A stretch of DNA of 64,000 nt from Clostridia bacterium (GCA_017510245.1 JAFWNQ010000010.1:7178-71177), one strand, 5' to 3'; positions 3,859-35,040 are shown, numbered from the stretch's first letter. Program-made: numbers and translations. Notes: generated by a model not told the origin, from the letters alone.

Positions 3859-5418
3859 ATGGAAAATGATTTTAGAAAAAGTTTAATTGTAGAGCCAACT
3901 CCTGTATTTAGTGAAATTGATGAACAAGAATTTATTGAAAGAAATACAAGAAACTATATTACATTATACAATATACCAGAAGTTAGAGAGTATTATACTC
4001 AAGTTGTTACATCAATTATTCTAGCATATAGTGAAAAATATGGTAATCATGGCATTCAATTAAATTATAGATATAAATCTCCTAAAAGCATAAGAAATAA
4101 AATGAGAGAATACGTAAGAGATAAGCAATCTGAGCCTGATATTAAGCAACCTATGTATGATGGTTTTGCTATGAAATTAATAACTAGCGAAGTGCCATCA
4201 CTTATGTATTCGAGAGACCCATATAGATTATTTGATAAAGACAAAACACTATCTCAATTAGTTTCAGAAAGAAAATCAAATTATGATTTTTTAGAAAAAA
4301 TGCAAGAATTTAAGAGTAAACTAGTTGAAGATGAAAGCGGAAATTCTCCTAAATCTAGATTTGATGTTTCGCAAGAAGAATACTTTACAAATTGTATATC
4401 TTTATTAAAAAGAACATTAACAATTGTTGATCCTGAAGAGACATTAATTATAGCTCAAATCAATTCAAGTATTTCAAAAATGGAAAGTAAGCTTAAATCA
4501 GCTAGAGACTCCGGAATGGCATCATATCCTATTACACACAGAGAATTCGAAGTTGATTCTAGTCAATCAGAATCGCCTGAAAATTTCCTTGCTTTTTTAG
4601 ACAATTTTGAAAGCAAAATGCATAATGAATTAGCTATGGCTGTTTTAAATAAGCAATTTACTAGCTTATTTAAAAGTAATGAAGAACAATTTAGAGCATT
4701 AGGAATTAGCTTATCAGGTTCTAAGCCATTTAAAAGAAAAAGAAAAGATAATGGATATGAATCTAACTTTATTTATATAGATACACTATTTGGAACCATT
4801 GAATGCCAATTGCAAACATATGAGCAATATCAGCAAGGAAAAACTGGTTCAGCTTCTCATTTTCAATACTCTGAGCAGAGAGACGATGATGACATTTTAC
4901 TTGAAGAAAATGATGGAGATTCTCAAAAAGAAGAGTTACCTCAACTTGTCAGTCTACCAACACCAGGTGGATTTTCCGATCCAGAAGTTGCAATGAATTT
5001 CTTGCAAAGAGTTCGTGAAATATCTCCACAGATTTCTTCAGTAACAATGGGTAGCTATAGAACTAAAAATATTGATTATGGAGCTTTTAGAAATTACTAT
5101 TCTATTTTTGCTGAAATCCCACCTAGTCATTTTCTAACTCCTCAATTTACTCAATATTTCACTGCTCTTAGAGATACTCCTGATTCACCTTTAAAAAATT
5201 ATCCAGATCAATTGAGGCAATATAACATTCAAGATGTTGAGGACTATATAGGTAGTGACGAGTTCGAAAGATTGAAAAGAATTTCTGAATTGTGGCATCT
5301 TCACTTTGATACGTTTGCAGATAGTTACGCACATTCAGGTTTATATGTTTCTAATAATAATAACATTCAAAATGTTCCCGAACAATTAACATTGCCTAAC
5401 CTAGACCTTGATAGATAA
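3859..5418 (+). CDS. Divergent RelA/SpoT-like nucleotidyltransferase (alarmone-synthetase fold) with a large insertion and C-terminal extension
   Basis: Synthetase-type motifs occur in order: RYKSPKSIRNKM (aa 71-82), YDGFAMKLI (aa 100-108), NGYESNFIYI (aa 298-307), IECQLQTYEQ (aa 314-323), SASHFQY. About 190 aa are inserted between motifs 2 and 3. Confidence 0.55.
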   Translation: MENDFRKSLIVEPTPVFSEIDEQEFIERNTRNYITLYNIPEVREYYTQVVTSIILAYSEKYGNHGIQLNYRYKSPKSIRNKMREYVRDKQSEPDIKQPMYDGFAMKLITSEVPSLMYSRDPYRLFDKDKTLSQLVSERKSNYDFLEKMQEFKSKLVEDESGNSPKSRFDVSQEEYFTNCISLLKRTLTIVDPEETLIIAQINSSISKMESKLKSARDSGMASYPITHREFEVDSSQSESPENFLAFLDNFESKMHNELAMAVLNKQFTSLFKSNEEQFRALGISLSGSKPFKRKRKDNGYESNFIYIDTLFGTIECQLQTYEQYQQGKTGSASHFQYSEQRDDDDILLEENDGDSQKEELPQLVSLPTPGGFSDPEVAMNFLQRVREISPQISSVTMGSYRTKNIDYGAFRNYYSIFAEIPPSHFLTPQFTQYFTALRDTPDSPLKNYPDQLRQYNIQDVEDYIGSDEFERLKRISELWHLHFDTFADSYAHSGLYVSNNNNIQNVPEQLTLPNLDLDR

Positions 5419-5525: not shown

Positions 5526-8500
5526 CTATTTTTTACTCAAGTCTATAGATAGCAATTTACTTATGCCATTTTCCTCCATCGTAATTCCATAAACCGTATT
5601 TGCTGCTTCCATCGAACCTTTTCTGTGTGTTATTATTAAAAATTGAGTTTCTTCACTAAATTTTTTCAAGAAGTCAGCATATCTATACACATTTACATCA
5701 TCTAAAGCCGCTTCAATTTCATCCAAAATACAGAAAGGTGCTGGATTTATTTTTAAAATTGCAAATAGTAATGCAATCGCAGTTAATGCCTTTTCACCTC
5801 CTGATAAAAGCATCATGTTTTGTAGCTTTTTTCCAGTTGGTTGAACTTTAATACTGATACCACTTTCTAATACATTTTCTTCATCATCTAGTATAAGTTC
5901 AGCTTTTCCCCCTCCAAAAAGTTCAATAAATACTTCATTAAAATACTTTTGAATTTTCTTAAATTGTTGTTCAAATTGTTTTTTCATTGTTGCTGTCATT
6001 TCTTGAATCATATTTCTTAATTTAGCCATTGTTGTTTCCAAATCTAGCCTTTGTTCACACATAGTTTCATATCGTTCTTCAGTCTTTTTATATTCATCAA
6101 TTGCAGATACGTTAACATCACCAAGCTCTTTCATTTCATCATGAATTTTGTTAACATTTTTTTGCGTTTCTTGAACATTTGTCGGTTTTTCAAATTCTTC
6201 TTTAGCATTATTTGGTGTAATTTCATAATCTCTCCATAGGTTATTTATAATTTCGTTTAACCCCTGGTTTGCAGAAGCCAACTTAGAATCTGTCTTTACT
6301 AAGCCTTCCTTCACTTTTTGAATAGTTTCAAACTGATTTGTTATTTCTTTTTCTATACTGTCTATCTTTTCATTTTTAGCTTTTCTATCCTCTTTTAGCT
6401 TTTCTGACATTTCTCCGCTGTTAGCTACTTCCTCTTTTATTTTTTCTATATTATTCTTAAGATTTTCTATCGTTTCTTCTAGTTCTTTATTTTGCACATC
6501 AATTTTATCTATTTCAGCTTTTTTATTAGCAATATCATTTTTTTCATTAGCAATATCTTCTTTTATTCTTTCCATCATCTCTTCTATAGATGTATTGCTT
6601 TCATCAAATGATGATACTGAAATCTTTAGGTCTGTAATATCTTCATTTAAATTATCAATATACTCTTGTTCTTCTTTATGATGTTTAGCAAATTCATTTA
6701 TTTCATTTAGAAGATTTTCAGACTCTTCATTAATCTCTTCTATCTTTTTTTCTATTTTTTCTTTTTCTATTATAGAATTATCTATGTTTTCTTTTAAAGT
6801 AGTAATGCTTTTCTCTATTTTAGTTTTATTATTAATTATTCTTTCAATATCTGTTTCAATCGAGCTATTCTTTTCACTTATTTTTGCAAACTCAATTTCC
6901 GATTCTCTTAGTCTTTCTTCTACATCTTGTATTTTTGTAAGAATATTTTCATTATTCTTTATGTATTCTTCCTTTTCTAATACTATTTTTTCTAACTCTT
7001 TGTCTAATCTTTTGATTTCTTTTTCTAGTCTTGCAATTTCAGTTTTTCTTCCTAAAATATTAACTGTCTTTTTTTGTATCGAACCTCCTGACATAGCTCC
7101 CGAAGGATTTATTATATCACCTTCTAGAGTAACTATCTTAAACGAATACTTGTTATTTTTTGCACACTTAATTGCTGATTCTATATTATCAACAACTACC
7201 GTTTTTCCTAATAAGTTTAATACAATGTTTTCATATTTTTTATCTGCTTTAACTAAATCAGAAGCAATTCCTACAACTCCATCTCTTGAAATAATTCTTT
7301 CGATTTTTTTCCCTTTTATTGTTGATACAGGTAAAAATGAAGCTCTACCTAATTTATTCTTTCTTAAATACTCTATAAGTTTTTTAGCATCTTGTTCTGT
7401 ATCAGTAACAATATTTTGCATTGCGGCTCCCAGAGCCATTTCAATAGCTACTTGATATTTTTCATCAGTTGAAATAATATTTGCTAAGACTCCATTTATT
7501 CCTTTTTTTAGATTTCTATCACTATCACACGCAACTAGAACATCTTTAACAGATTTTATATATCCTTCTTTTTCCTTTTCAGTTTCTATTAAAAAGTTAT
7601 ATCTAGAACTAATCAATCTCTTTTTGTCTGTTGCTTTTTCAATGTTTTTTTCATACTCTTCAATTTTTCTATCTATTTTTCCTTTTTCTTCTTGAATTGA
7701 TTCTAGCTCTTTTTTATTATTATTCTTTATTCTTTCATTTTCATTTAATTCTTTTAATATATCATTTTTTTCTGTTCGTTTCTTATCTAATTCTGATATT
7801 ATTCTTGATAGTTCTCTATTTTCTTGCTTTGTTCTATCCTTATAGTTTTCACAATTTGTTTCTAACATTGTTATATCGTTTTGTAACTTATATTTATCTT
7901 CAGTTAATTCTTCATTCTTTTTCTTCTTATTCTCAATTTCAATTTGCTTAGAACTTAATTTTTTACTTAGCTCAGCAAACTCTGTTTCTTTTAACTCAAG
8001 TTCTTTTACAAATTTTTCTTTGTTTTTTAGTAAATCTTCCTTTCTAATCTCCCTATTTTTAATATCTTCTTCCAGTTTTTCAATGTTTTTAGTATTCTCT
8101 GTTATTTCATTTTCTAGTCTATTTTTATTTGCCTTATTGTTTGAAATTCTTTCATAACTTATGCTAATATCCGAATTAATTTTTTCTATTTGGTTTTTAC
8201 TCTCAAAATTAATATTTTGCATTCTCTCTATTTGTTCATTTATTTTATCTAATTCTTCTTTTAATTGTTCCTTAATTTTTTGTATTTCATTAAGTTTATC
8301 ATTTTCATTCTCATTTTGTTCTTCAAATATTTCTTTACTCTTTATTAGATTTTCTATTTTACTTTTAAAACTATCAATCTTATATATGTAAAGTCCTACT
8401 TCTATTCTCTTTAATTCATCTCTTAATTCTAAATACTTTTTTGCCTTTTCAGCTTGTTCCTTAAGAGGCTCTAAATTAGCTTCGATTTCTGTCAATATAT

Positions 8501-27834: not shown

Positions 27835-28012
27835 ATAAATCACCTATTAATTTATATGAGAATATTTATATTATATGTATTATTTGTTTTTCACTCTATC
27901 ACTTTAGTCCGTAGAAGCAATGTCATAAAATAAAGTATTACAAATTTGCTCAAAACTCTTGTTTTTTTCGCGATTTTGTAGGATAATATAAGAGGAAAGG
28001 ATTTTATCAACC

Positions 28013-30346
28013 ATGAAGTTATTAGATAGTTTTTTAAAAATATTAAAAACTGATAGAAATACCTTTTTTACTTTTGTCTTGTCAATATGTTCAGTTTATA
28101 TAATAGTTGATAGATTAATAGAATTTTTCTTGATTGTTTTTACAGGTGTAGCCTTTGAATATTGGGGACCAATAACATATGCTATTGCCTATGCTTTCCC
28201 TGTATTTGCTTTTCTATTTTCTTTTCCATCAAAATTTGTTAAACGAGATGTAGACAAAATTACACTATTTATATCGTATTGTATAACTTTATATATATTA
28301 TTTATAATAATGATTACTGAGTGGATTAATAAACTATGCTGGATAGGCCTATTATCACTTCCTGGATATACAACAATAGTTACAGAATTTGCATTTTTGA
28401 TAAAACCAGCATTCTCTTCAATGGCTTTATTTTTGCCACTAGCCACTTGGAGTTCATTATTTAAAAAACTTTACATGAATTTTATGCAAACGAATTTACT
28501 TCAAAAATCTTTATTTGATTTTGGTGGTATAAATCTATCAGACACCAGCATTGGTTGGGGACCATATACAAACGAAGTAAAATTTGGAACAGATAAGAAA
28601 ACTGGAGCCACAGTTAAGCTTCCTGAAATTAGAAGATTTGAATCAACACTTGTCGTTGGTGTTTCTGGTGCAGGAAAAACAACATTGATTTTTGAGCCAA
28701 TGGTTGCTCAAGATATTAATAAAAAGTTTTTCTTTAGGGAAACATCCAAGACATTAGCTATAGCTGCATTAAGAACTGGAATAGCAACTTTAAATGCTCC
28801 ATATAATAATCAATATATCAATAAGAATTTTTCATTAAATATGCTTAAACCTGTTGAATCTAAAAAAGTACTATTTAACTCATATTTTAAGAAAATGATT
28901 TTAACAGACTCTGGTTCAAATATTATATACAAAAACTTAGGTATTACTTATATGTCTCCCGATTATGAGACAATAGGAAAAATAAAAGACGTTTGTGAGA
29001 ATTTTGGACTTAGCTATAATATGATTGATCCTGATAATCCAAATTCAATCGGATTAAATCCATTTTCATTTGAAGATCCGGTTCAATCTGCATTACTGAT
29101 TTCATCTGTACTAAAAGGCTTTTACTCAGATAGGAATCCTGAAGTTGAATTAGCATATAGAGAAAACTTATCAACACAAATTATAGAAAACTTAGCAATT
29201 CTTTTAAAAGTAATGTATCCTAAATTGAATAGTGGTAAAATACCAACTATTGATGATATGTTAAAATTCCTTAATAATTTTGACTTAATTGAAAAGATGT
29301 GTCAAATACTTGAGCAAGATCCTGACTTAGCATATCAATATCAAAATCAAATAGGTTATTTTAAAAAGAATTTCTATAGAAATAGTCCTAACAGAGCAGA
29401 AATGGAAAAAATAGTATCTATACCAATGTCTCAGTTAGATACTTTACTAAGATACCCTGGAGTTAAAAGAATATTATGTAATAGAACTCATAACATTAAT
29501 TACGATAATGTTTTAGAAAATGGTGAAATCAATCTTGTATGTACACGTAGAGGAGATTTGGGAGAAAACGCTCATAAAGCCTTTGGATTATTCTTCCTTC
29601 TTCTAATGCAATTCTCTGTATTAAGAAGACCTGGAAATGAAAAATCTAGAATCCCCCACTTCCTATACATCGATGAATTTCCTGATTTTATATGTCCATC
29701 TACAGAATCAATTTTTACAGTATATAGAAAATATAGAATTGCAACAGTTGTGTCTGCTCAGAATCTAGATCAAATACGTGCCAAAGGTGAAAAAATGGGA
29801 AATACAATTATTGCAAACTGTTCAAATAAATTTGTATTTGGTAATAACTCACCTCAAGACAATGACTGGTGGTCAAAAGAAATTGGGCAAAAGAAAGATT
29901 GGACAATTGATCGTAAGGGATTTGACTTTTCTAGTGAAACCTATGTAGACAAAGGTAATGTTTCTCTTGACTTTAAAGATAAGCTTACAGCTGGAAAGAT
30001 TCAAAAATTAGGATTTAAAACTTGTGCATATAAAGTTAGAGATTTAGGTGGTAGAATTTCAAATGGTGTTGCAAAACTTGATTTTATGGAAGAAAAATAC
30101 AACGAGAAACAAAAAATAAAAACATTTGACTTCAAGAGATTTTCTAATGGAATAACTCAAGAGGATACTACAGGAAAATTTAATTTACTAAAATCTATAA
30201 ACTCACATAATCCATTAGCAAATTCACATTTTTCTGATGAAGCTCAAGAAGATGGCAATCCTATAAAACTTGATACTTCAAACTTAAATTTCAATATTAA
30301 CAATGATGATGCAATAACATTTACATTTAAAAAGGATAAAAAATAA
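28013..30346 (+). CDS. TraG/TraD/VirD4-like type IV coupling-protein ATPase with polytopic N-terminal membrane domain
   Basis: About 5-6 N-terminal TM helices. Walker A VVGVSGAGKTTLIFEP, Walker B HFLYIDEFPDF, then RKYRIATVVSAQNLDQIRAKGEKMGNTIIANCSNKFVFG (TraG-D_C-like). Confidence 0.65.
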   Translation: MKLLDSFLKILKTDRNTFFTFVLSICSVYIIVDRLIEFFLIVFTGVAFEYWGPITYAIAYAFPVFAFLFSFPSKFVKRDVDKITLFISYCITLYILFIIMITEWINKLCWIGLLSLPGYTTIVTEFAFLIKPAFSSMALFLPLATWSSLFKKLYMNFMQTNLLQKSLFDFGGINLSDTSIGWGPYTNEVKFGTDKKTGATVKLPEIRRFESTLVVGVSGAGKTTLIFEPMVAQDINKKFFFRETSKTLAIAALRTGIATLNAPYNNQYINKNFSLNMLKPVESKKVLFNSYFKKMILTDSGSNIIYKNLGITYMSPDYETIGKIKDVCENFGLSYNMIDPDNPNSIGLNPFSFEDPVQSALLISSVLKGFYSDRNPEVELAYRENLSTQIIENLAILLKVMYPKLNSGKIPTIDDMLKFLNNFDLIEKMCQILEQDPDLAYQYQNQIGYFKKNFYRNSPNRAEMEKIVSIPMSQLDTLLRYPGVKRILCNRTHNINYDNVLENGEINLVCTRRGDLGENAHKAFGLFFLLLMQFSVLRRPGNEKSRIPHFLYIDEFPDFICPSTESIFTVYRKYRIATVVSAQNLDQIRAKGEKMGNTIIANCSNKFVFGNNSPQDNDWWSKEIGQKKDWTIDRKGFDFSSETYVDKGNVSLDFKDKLTAGKIQKLGFKTCAYKVRDLGGRISNGVAKLDFMEEKYNEKQKIKTFDFKRFSNGITQEDTTGKFNLLKSINSHNPLANSHFSDEAQEDGNPIKLDTSNLNFNINNDDAITFTFKKDKK

Positions 30347-30356
30347 ACTGTCAATG

Positions 30357-30416
30357 TGTCAATGGGGACGTAGTTATTATGACATTAATGTCATAATAAC
30401 TACGTCCCCATTGACA
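30357..30416. repeat. 60-bp perfect palindrome (30-bp arms, no spacer) flanked by TGTCAATG / CATTGACA repeats
   Basis: All 30 pairs were checked base by base around the centre 30386|30387. Core: tgtcaatggggacgtagttattatgacatt|aatgtcataataactacgtccccattgaca. An extra tgtcaatg lies on the left (30349-30356), and ttgaca plus ccattgaca on the right (30417-30432). Confidence 0.95.
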
Positions 30417-30434
30417 TTGACACCCATTGACAAG

Positions 30435-31364
30435 CTATAATAATATTTTTGCTTCATTTTTTCTTATTTTAAATTTTCCATCTTCATTTACAAAACTATA
30501 TAAAGAACTAGATAAACTATCATTATTCTGTTCTAAATCCGTCGTATAATAAAAGTTGATTTTGTCAAAATTTATCCTATTAATCGTTATTACCTTGAAA
30601 ACTTCTCCCATATGAGTCATATCTTCACAAACAAATACGATTTGAGGAATTGTACTAAACTCTGAATCTCCAATAATAAAATTATCATAAAAGTCCTTCC
30701 ATAGATTCATTCTATCAATTAATTGCTGTTCCCAACCCAAATTTCTTCTAATTACTTCATAGACAAAGCTATAGTTATGTTGGTTAAAATTAAAGTCTAT
30801 TCTCAAAGTTGGTTTAAATTTTTTTGCTAAACTTTTTGCAGTTATTTGAGGTTTTAGTACATAGTTACTAAACGATTTGACCTTTCTCATATATGCAATT
30901 AATAGTTGATTACCAGCTAATTTTTTCTTTATCATATCTACAGGTTTTGCATTATCTGATGGTTGCCATTTACAATCAATCTCTCTTGAGTTAAGTAAGT
31001 ATTTTCCCATTTTCTCCATGCAGTATACTCTAAAAATACCTTTTCCCTCACTAGAAACAAAATAATATCTAGTTAATATTTTGCTTTTTATTAGTTGATC
31101 TAATTTATTATTTAACTTATCTTGGCTTTTTATTTCAACATTTTCCATTTGTAACAATTGATAAATCTGCCTTGATGTTAAAAATTCATATTTATTTATA
31201 TATTCAATTATTTTAAAATGTAAATCATTTATATGTCCCAAATTAATCTTTTGCATTATTTGATTCATAGACACATATCCATCTTTACCGTCAAATACTT
31301 TTATTTCTCCCTCTCTCATTGCAAATGGAGAGACTTTTGTTTTTATTTCATTATCATTTACCAT
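30435..31364 (-). CDS. wHTH protein resembling the Replication-relaxation (PF13814-like) family
   Basis: Segment LHFKIIEYINKYEFLTSRQIYQLL...LNNKLDQLIKSKILTRYY...YCMEKMGKYLL follows the wHTH pattern of replication-relaxation proteins. Convergent with the coupling-protein gene. Confidence 0.45.
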   Translation of the reverse strand: MVNDNEIKTKVSPFAMREGEIKVFDGKDGYVSMNQIMQKINLGHINDLHFKIIEYINKYEFLTSRQIYQLLQMENVEIKSQDKLNNKLDQLIKSKILTRYYFVSSEGKGIFRVYCMEKMGKYLLNSREIDCKWQPSDNAKPVDMIKKKLAGNQLLIAYMRKVKSFSNYVLKPQITAKSLAKKFKPTLRIDFNFNQHNYSFVYEVIRRNLGWEQQLIDRMNLWKDFYDNFIIGDSEFSTIPQIVFVCEDMTHMGEVFKVITINRINFDKINFYYTTDLEQNNDSLSSSLYSFVNEDGKFKIRKNEAKILL

Positions 31365-34149: not shown

Positions 34150-34353
34150 TTTTTCACCTCCTTTAGAATTTATATTTATAACGACTACTATTAATAAGTC
34201 TTTAGAAGTCGTGTATTAACTATGTTATGTCTAGAATCTAATCATATAAAAAACTCAATCTATAGCCATAGGCAAATAGATTGAGCAAATCTCATTCTAG
34301 TTTGCCTCGGTAGGACTTACTTATTGCCTACTATCTTTGGCTATAATAATATA
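34150..34353 (-). promoter_or_regulatory. Structured rplJ leader (candidate L10-leader autoregulatory RNA)
   Basis: 204-nt spacer between rplA and rplJ containing several hairpins (caatctat...atagattg; gtagg...cctac; acgact...agtcgt). Firmicute rplJ operons commonly carry an L10(L12)4-binding leader here. Confidence 0.4.
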
Positions 34354-35040
34354 TTATTTATGTTCAATATACAATCCTGGTCCCATTGTTGTTGCCATTG
34401 CAACACTCTTAACATATTGACCCTTAGCTGCAGCTGGTTTTGCTTTAATTATAGCATTCATAATTACTTCATAGTTCTCTAATAACTTGTCTGTTCCAAA
34501 AGAAACTTTACCAAATCCTAAGTGAATAATATTATTTTTATCTAATCTATATTCAACTTTACCAGATTTAATCTCTTCTATAGCTTTTGTAACATCCATA
34601 GTTACAGTTCCTGATTTAGGGTTTGGCATTAAACCTTTTGGTCCAAGTACCTTTCCTAATCTACCTACAACACCCATCATATCTGGTGTGGCAACAACTA
34701 CATCATATTCAAACCAGTTTTCATTTTGGATTTTAGGTATTAATTCTTCTGCTCCAACAAAATCAGCTCCTGCCTTTTCAGCTTCGTCTGCTTTTGGTCC
34801 TTTAGCAAATACCAATACTCTTTGTGTTTTTCCAGTTCCATTTGGAAGTACTACTGTACCTCTAACTTGTTGATCTGCATGCTTTGAGTCAACTCCTAAT
34901 TTAACATGAAGTTCAACTGTTTCGTCAAACTTTGTTTTAGGCATTTTTTCGATTATATCAATGGCATCTTTTGGGCTATATAATTTTTTTGCCTCAAAAA
35001 GTTTAGCACTTTCTTGATATCTCTTTCCTTTCTTTTTCAT
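34354..35040 (-). CDS. rplA: 50S ribosomal protein L1
   Basis: [10 protein letters not shown]...[12 protein letters not shown]...[15 protein letters not shown]... Confidence 0.95.

Follow-up and report, generated by a model that had tools for sequence, protein, structure and literature searches.

A 60-bp perfect palindrome between two conjugation-like genes of uncultured Clostridia: a probable dimer of a RAYT-associated hairpin repeat

A long perfect palindrome lying between the convergent genes of a coupling-protein-like ATPase and a relaxase-like protein raises the question whether it belongs functionally to these genes, for example as a transfer origin, or has another source. It was studied within a stretch of 64,000 nucleotides (the window in the following), which comes from the chromosome of an uncultured Clostridia lineage of low GC content (28%). 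The original prediction regarded the site as a structure-forming DNA element recognised by a protein, not as a plain terminator, and as a possible transcription stop from both sides; an oriT, an ori or an operator for the adjacent wHTH protein was proposed. The general idea proved right, the units of the palindrome being tied to a REP-associated tyrosine transposase (RAYT) which, by analogy with related enzymes, would recognise them. The specific proposals were not supported, since the unit is dispersed and the palindrome is absent from orthologous loci. The analysis described here makes it very probable that the palindrome is a head-to-head (REPIN/TIR-type) dimer of a small non-autonomous RAYT-associated repeat, similar to the TIRYT elements.

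The palindrome and the genes around it

The gene order at the locus is spoVAD, spoVAE, HU, a spoVB-like gene, the T4CP/VirD4-like gene (+ strand), the palindrome, the gene of the 309-aa protein (- strand), mgtE, rplL and rplJ. The T4CP-like gene (28013-30346, + strand) encodes a 777-aa ATPase with a TM domain and TraG-D_C/TrwB domains, while its convergent neighbour (30435-31364, - strand) encodes a 309-aa wHTH and PD-(D/E)XK protein of the MOBC/Replic_Relax-like kind. The palindromic element occupies the whole 88-bp gap between them, coming to within 2 nt of the stop codon on either side. Elsewhere in the window a ribosomal protein L10 leader (Rfam RF00557) was found upstream of rplJ (34238-34358, - strand; 46.2 bits, gathering score 44).

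The palindrome itself covers 60 bp (30357-30416) and consists of two 30-nt arms which, as originally described, are 100% complementary and have no spacer (0 nt) between them. The left arm (30357-30386, + strand, TGTCAATGGGGACGTAGTTATTATGACATT) is a REP/TIR-type repeat unit in '+' orientation, having the stem TGTCA/TGACA and a loop that starts with GGGGACG. The right arm (30387-30416, - strand) is its exact reverse complement, and the two make up a head-to-head ('+,-') dimer without spacer. Partial copies of the arm adjoin on both sides. An extra copy of the 5' stem arm, TGTCAATG, stands directly upstream of the left unit (30349-30356, + strand), and the right flank (30415-30432, - strand) holds two more, namely CATTGACA at 30415-30422, which overlaps the unit by 2 nt, and CCCATTGACA at 30423-30432; CCCATTGACA forms a direct repeat with starts at 30407 and 30423. 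TGTCAATG occurred 5 times in the 64-kb window, all at the palindrome site (30349 and 30357 on the + strand; 30409, 30415 and 30425 on the - strand), compared with ~2.3 copies expected for the whole window. The count of two plus three inverted copies of the same short repeat was thus correct. The repeated copies that had been called iterons are real, but they do not represent an independent motif, as they are partial stem-arm copies of the repeat unit. Similarly, the GC content of the arm (11/30, 0.37) is raised over the local value of ~0.28 as had been noticed, but the enrichment is modest rather than clear.

The window contains a single site of the repeat unit, and no second copy of the core GGGGACGTAGTTATTATGACATT could be detected in it when 3 mismatches were allowed. 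A 10-nt copy of the core at 27919-27928, upstream of the coupling-protein gene, had been pointed out with the reservation that it might be fortuitous; it stands in unremarkable sequence without any features of the unit, therefore the match is ascribed to chance. Two further, independent assemblies (L081 and L089) contain the identical 60 bp in the gap of this gene pair, thus the palindrome is not an assembly artefact.

A dispersed hairpin repeat and its transposase

Each 30-nt arm of the palindrome represents a single unit of a hairpin repeat whose copies are dispersed. This unit is ~30 nt long and is composed of a variable stem, a loop start (T)GGGGACG(G/T), ~5 variable bases, a T-run and the complementary stem; the loop measures 12-17 nt, and the stem varies by lineage, its two sides co-varying. 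In 1.0 Mb of related loci GGGGACG occurred 47 times, while the mean for permuted 7-mers was 7.6. Almost half of these copies (23/47) lay in a loop closed by a perfect stem of 6 bp or more, which was the case for 0-1 copies of unrelated permutations. The stems differ among the loci yet stay complementary, and compensatory stem changes were observed at orthologous sites upstream of mgtE (L040, L052, L053, L074). At these sites units or unit pairs stand just upstream of the mgtE ribosome-binding site (~4260-4360), as they also do in L037 (4597-4870), L038 and L054, where the pair encloses ~240 nt that itself forms a long imperfect hairpin. An M-box riboswitch was not detected by Rfam at the mgtE-upstream sites, and the units there may affect mgtE expression.

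The metagenome scan for the TGTCA-stem variant, with the pattern TGTCAATGGGGACG-N7-10-TGACA, returned at least 120 stretches. The units were in intergenic DNA beside unrelated housekeeping genes, often several per contig: in L217, 5.7 kb of sequence had units in 4 such regions, and L164, L152 and L112 were multi-site as well. A dispersed REP-like repeat had been named in advance as an outcome that would speak against the original proposals, and the unit was indeed present in many unrelated intergenic regions. The Rfam scan of the window and 10 loci at gathering threshold returned the L10 leader and generic miRNA-hairpin noise only, with no family for the unit. E-value scans of two units against Rfam likewise gave no matching family but generic miRNA-hairpin noise, and the literature search by sequence string yielded nothing relevant.

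Some of the metagenome matches were rejected. In several high-GC contigs (L101, L104, L111, L121, L132, L150) the match GATGTCAATGGGGACGG... is coding sequence for D-V-N-G-D-G, and such FG-GAP/calcium-binding-type coding matches were set aside as false positives of the repeat family. Genuine units, with partial tandem copies and dimers, were seen both in L109, L135, L147, L162 and L167 (GC 0.61-0.65) and in L114, L117, L127, L143, L158, L159 and L169 (GC ~0.5), values far above the GC content of the Clostridia clade; GTGTCAATGGGGACGTATAAYTTTGACACC is an example of a unit in the Ga0082212 contigs. The presence of units in contigs of much higher GC indicates that the unit sequence is conserved across very different hosts.

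In the intergenic DNA of low-GC gut Clostridia the units appear as singletons, as tandem partial copies and as head-to-head '+,-' dimers. Partial tandem copies (TGTCAATG / TGTCAATGGG) are common 5' of the units elsewhere, including those beside RAYT genes. Among neighbouring units within 160 nt, the '+,-' arrangement was found in 44 distinct cases, '-,+' in 4 and the tandem one in 26. Tight '+,-' dimers were present in L210 (perfect arms of 32 nt, 11 nt unpaired), L165 and L107 (26 nt and 8 nt in both), L159 (24 nt, 8 nt unpaired), L043 (25 nt, 10 nt unpaired) and L143 (22 nt, 11 nt unpaired). The dimer of the window, with arms of 30 nt and 0 nt unpaired, is the tightest of this series and is otherwise typical of it.

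More complex arrangements could also be seen. In L075 (10035-10400) there is a foldback element of ~365 nt with an RNA fold of -185 kcal/mol, a BIME-like cluster in which a palindromic core with a terminator-like hairpin is framed by three tandem units on its left and, on its right, by two tandem units in inverted orientation. The partial tandem copies stop at ...GGG, ...GGGG or ...GGGGACG, after which the arm restarts, as in TTGTCAATGGGGACG|TGTCAATGGGGACGTAG of L220. Endings of this sort were located in L220 (2354-2390), L048 (~8020-8060), L043 (~6965-6995) and the window (30349-30364 and 30407-30432). Their positions hint that the GGGGACG block may be a cutting or joining point of the transposase, or else a slippage point.

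Two other kinds of element were considered for the units and rejected. An inverton, in which inverted repeats surround a promoter, was discarded since inversion is meaningless with spacers of 0-10 nt. An IS or MITE with its transposase between copies ~1 kb apart did not fit L094 and L128, which carry ordinary genes between the units; in L151 the space between the units held a RAYT gene.

The ORF between the inverted units of L151 encodes 230 aa and matches NCBIfam NF047646, 'REP-associated tyrosine transposase', with 84.9 bits (cut-off 80), as well as Pfam Y1_Tnp. The same arrangement, a Y1 transposase ORF between inverted units, was present in L183. A protein-only search with this transposase returned >1300 homologues of 225-231 aa, and 12 loci from 4 protein clusters were fetched by protein homology alone, the DNA motif being ignored. 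In all 12, a '+' unit precedes the RAYT gene by ~110-140 nt and a '-' unit follows it after 25-90 nt. The gene occupies fixed spots among housekeeping genes (vanW-RAYT-miaB-mutS, uvrB-RAYT-serS, NUDIX-RAYT-peptidase M16). Its products are 225-241 aa long and have a clear Y1_Tnp (IS200-like) core with ~90 extra C-terminal residues, in which the HTH matches were all below threshold (Sigma70_r4 E = 0.11, HTH_19 0.17, HTH_DeoR 0.03). The sole relative in the PDB by sequence is E. coli TnpA-REP (4ER8). Over their first 20 nt, TGTCAATGGGGACGTAGTT, the arms of the window palindrome are identical to the units on either side of the RAYT gene of L211. A RAYT gene was not found within the 64-kb window, so a cognate transposase in the source organism is inferred from its relatives, and the single site in the window means that the copy number in the source genome may be low.

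The palindrome occurs only where the 309-aa protein of a strain shares at least 99% identity. One such strain, L081 (99%), has the same core but different flanks, the number and kind of the partial arm copies having changed. At loci of 88, 84 and 82% identity the palindrome is absent, and unrelated ordinary hairpins (A-tract, stem-loop, T-tract) stand in its place. It is absent also from 80 more distant, species-level loci, which have unrelated hairpins and no TGTCAATG clusters and of which ~40 retain both genes. Thus the copy is young, as judged from its occurrence in strains of at least 99% identity only.

The known enzymes of this kind suggest how such a copy could arise. By analogy with E. 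coli TnpA-REP and the IS200/IS605 transposases, the transposase would bind the folded single-stranded unit, and it would cut and rejoin it. Cutting and rejoining could spread the copies and rearrange them into dimers and partial copies. Such an activity would explain the perfect arms, the young age of the copy and the partial copies at its edges that vary among strains.

Transfer origin, operator and terminator readings of the site

The idea that the palindrome is an oriT of the pAD1/pAM373 (MOBC) type was a reasonable one, because its neighbours resemble the T4CP and MOBC relaxase pair of these plasmids. According to this model the 309-aa protein would bind TGTCAATG and nick the inverted repeat, and the T4CP-like ATPase would export the strand. 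In pAM373 the T4CP gene is separated from the gene of the Replic_Relax relaxase by a 142-bp inverted repeat and a direct-repeat array with a 12-bp period, and TraX of pAD1 binds direct repeats distant from nic (PMC12857230). The layout of the present site recalls that of the pAD1/pAM373 oriT, with its TraX relaxase and TraW coupling protein: a long inverted repeat with perfect arms, adjoined by short repeats, sits between a T4CP-like gene and a gene of the wHTH + PD-(D/E)XK (Replic_Relax-like) kind.

The two proteins were compared with their plasmid counterparts. The predicted structure of the 309-aa protein (pLDDT 85) contains a winged helix and a PD-(D/E)XK (restriction-endonuclease-like) nuclease fold; the candidate acidic catalytic residues D232, E246, D247 and E253 of the protein are invariant. 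This fold and the TraG-D_C/TrwB domains of the 777-aa protein are in favour of the oriT model. The match of the 309-aa protein to Pfam Replic_Relax (PF13814), the MOBC relaxase family that includes pAD1 TraX, also points that way, but it is weak (22.0 bits) and remains under the cut-off of 25.3, so that the similarity to TraX is below the family threshold. Direct pairwise comparison of the 309-aa protein with pAM373 TraX revealed no significant similarity; comparison of the T4CP-like protein with pAM373 TraW gave a weak one (E = 2e-4). The PDB sequence search with the 309-aa profile gave no match.

The 309-aa protein has >5000 homologues, nearly all of them 309 aa long, and its gene was found in at least 551 GTDB species genomes, where it sits beside mgtE. 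About half of 80 loci (L001-L080) have the T4CP-like gene next to it in convergent orientation. T4SS, integrase or other mobile-element genes were not seen near the pair, which argues against a functional oriT there, and the genes are convergent, in contrast to the co-directional ones of the plasmids. The pair looks like a domesticated relaxase/coupling-protein module of small-genome, low-GC Clostridia, and this conserved pair of T4CP-like ATPase and MOBC-like nuclease is more unusual than the palindrome. Distant plasmid-borne homologues of the 309-aa protein (~26% identity) occur on megaplasmids of Thermoanaerobacterium and Clostridium botulinum (L086 7113-8876; L087 5839-7639). Both genes are directly downstream of an 'S1 RNA-binding domain' gene, and the one in L086 adjoins Tad/T2SS-type pilus genes.

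The inheritance of the palindrome tells against the oriT model. Absence from orthologous loci keeping both genes had also been named beforehand as adverse to the original proposals, and exactly this was found at 88, 84 and 82% identity and at the ~40 distant loci, with unrelated terminator hairpins in the gap. Unlike an oriT, the palindrome is therefore not co-inherited with the gene pair, and its unit is dispersed over many unrelated loci, invariably tied to another enzyme, the RAYT. The presumed direct repeats are symmetric partial arm copies, which occur beside RAYT genes too, while the array of pAM373 is one-sided.

The motif was ~3.7 times more frequent per kb in intergenic regions adjoining the 309-aa gene than in others, which could be taken in favour of the oriT model. 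This enrichment fell to ~2-fold once related lineages were collapsed by eye, and among 80 unbiased metagenome loci the unit stood beside the 309-aa gene in one (L124), the other 79 being without the gene. Since REPs favour the 3' ends of genes and convergent gene pairs (PMC3733652), this preference together with the non-independence of lineages could explain the enrichment, which is too weak to support a functional link of the units to the 309-aa gene. Taken together, we regard the oriT model as very unlikely. The suggestion that the T4CP-like ATPase and the MOBC-like nuclease also act on such hairpins rests on the same mild enrichment and is more speculative still than the new REPIN-like population considered below. 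We infer that the position of the palindrome beside conjugation-like genes is incidental.

An operator or autoregulatory site of the adjacent wHTH protein, or a replication origin, is suggested by the palindromic form of the site and by its repeated 8-mers, located as they are beside the gene of a wHTH protein. In addition, TTGACA hexamers of the arms give outward-pointing promoter-like matches. However, a -10-like hexamer at promoter spacing (16-18 nt) was present in only 3 of 81 units, and the units were accordingly rejected as promoters with TTGACA arms as -35 boxes. The site lies at the 3' ends of both genes and not at a promoter, and it is not conserved in the orthologues. As for an origin, the context is chromosomal and the GC skew is monotonic across the site, so there is no origin signature. 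We therefore give hardly any credence to the operator or origin proposals.

A role in transcription termination deserves more attention. Folding of the palindrome as RNA gave -56.9 kcal/mol (z = -12.8 compared with shuffled sequence), and folding as DNA gave z = -14.9 on the same basis. A stable stem-loop followed by a U-tract, as expected of an intrinsic terminator, was found on the - strand only. There the tract GUUUAUUUUUU (30338-30348, - strand RNA) directly follows the extended hairpin; it overlaps the stop and the last codons of the T4CP-like gene and is the complement of the final codons. On the + strand no U-run stands directly after the stem. The earlier statement that the palindrome has no adjacent U-run thus holds for the + strand, but not for the - strand. 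The consensus terminator scan did not call the site, since its stem exceeds the length that the scan counts. A T-tract was observed at the same position in L082, L084 and L088, after ordinary terminator hairpins.

Could the palindrome then be simply an intrinsic terminator of unusual length, acting in both directions, which arose at this spot with no connection to a mobile repeat? A hairpin occupies the gap at almost all orthologous loci, often built as A-tract, stem and T-tract with arms of 9-25 nt and very short loops, and the U-tract of the - strand fits such an origin. The arms, however, are not peculiar to this locus, since the repeat that they copy recurs at many other places and beside RAYT genes, and neither the flanking partial copies nor their rearrangement from strain to strain are features of terminators. 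Moreover, termination is compatible with a repeat dimer and forms part of that explanation. The chance of an in-place origin is accordingly judged to be slight, and we retain the repeat dimer. As the element fills an 88-bp gap in which relatives carry ordinary intrinsic terminators, it most likely also stops transcription. It is probably a stop or an RNA-stabilising hairpin at least for the transcript of the 309-aa gene, which would end in the hairpin and GUUUAUUUUUU.

In this clade the ordinary terminators between the convergent genes, 3' of the 309-aa gene (L005, L007, L012, L064), frequently take the form of long perfect palindromes, in which arms of 17-23 nt enclose a loop of 0-1 nt and A- and T-runs adjoin. 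Long palindromes lacking a loop are thus not unusual there, even without the repeat unit.

Relation to known repeat and transposase systems

The repeats share several properties with the REP/REPIN-RAYT systems, such as E. coli TnpA-REP with its REP and BIME sequences or the REPINs of Pseudomonas fluorescens. They are short intergenic hairpins found as singletons, clusters and inverted doublets, and the doublets have one preferred relative orientation (here '+,-'). They lie downstream of genes and between convergent genes, and a chromosomal single-copy gene of a Y1 HUH transposase, standing among housekeeping genes, has them on both sides in inverted orientation. Unlike a canonical REP, the unit lacks the GT[AG]G tetranucleotide that marks the hairpin foot, and there is no conservation beyond the stem; instead GGGGACG(G/T) is conserved inside a large loop, and the stem is A+T-rich. 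The hosts are low-GC uncultured Clostridia and not Proteobacteria, and the transposase is longer, with its C-terminal extension.

The TIRYT/TIRtron elements are closer to the system of the window than the Proteobacterial REP/BIME/REPIN-RAYT systems. They have been described as GGGGWSAS-bearing inverted repeats which form dimers and clusters, some of them self-complementary (Di Nocera et al. 2013, PMC3733652). They are equivalent to TnpA-Y1 subclass 2.1 (Quentin et al. 2018, PMC6006769) and to RAYT Group 1, members of which have been reported in Clostridia (Bertels et al. 2017, PMC5581495). By the published description, their Y1 transposases are, like those found here, longer than classical RAYTs and carry a C-terminal extension. 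The flanking inverted repeats with a GGGG-initiated motif and the moderately abundant families of dimers and clusters are common to both. The motif found here, GGGGACGG/T, matches GGGGWSAS at 7 of 8 positions, with G for A at position 7, and some family members, e.g. L034, have GGGGACAG variants. The agreement is limited by the 7/8 match and by the missing GT[AG]G foot, and the unit is therefore grouped with the repeats of the RAYT/TIRYT kind and not with the canonical GTAG-REPs. No REP-like hairpins were reported for subclass 2.1 by Quentin et al. (PMC6006769), while the units described here are clear hairpins with co-varying stems.

With some reserve, we put forward the possibility that the GGGGACG-loop hairpins represent a previously undescribed REPIN-like population in Firmicutes, driven by a long RAYT of the TIRYT/Group-1 type. 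If this were the case, it would concern a RAYT class for which earlier surveys found neither REP-like hairpins nor large repeat populations. For the small-genome, low-GC uncultured gut Clostridia, the results mean that REP/RAYT-type populations exist there in the form of a loop-conserved hairpin rather than a GTAG-tagged REP. They also do away with an attractive but mistaken annotation, namely that of an oriT belonging to a 'conjugation' gene pair on the chromosome. Such repeats replace native terminators. As they vary between strains of 99% identity, they could be used to tell strains apart and to test how RAYTs act outside the Proteobacteria. The repeats also fragment short-read metagenome assemblies: the contigs L089 (end 1070) and L151 (end 1053) break off precisely at the outer border of a unit or palindrome.
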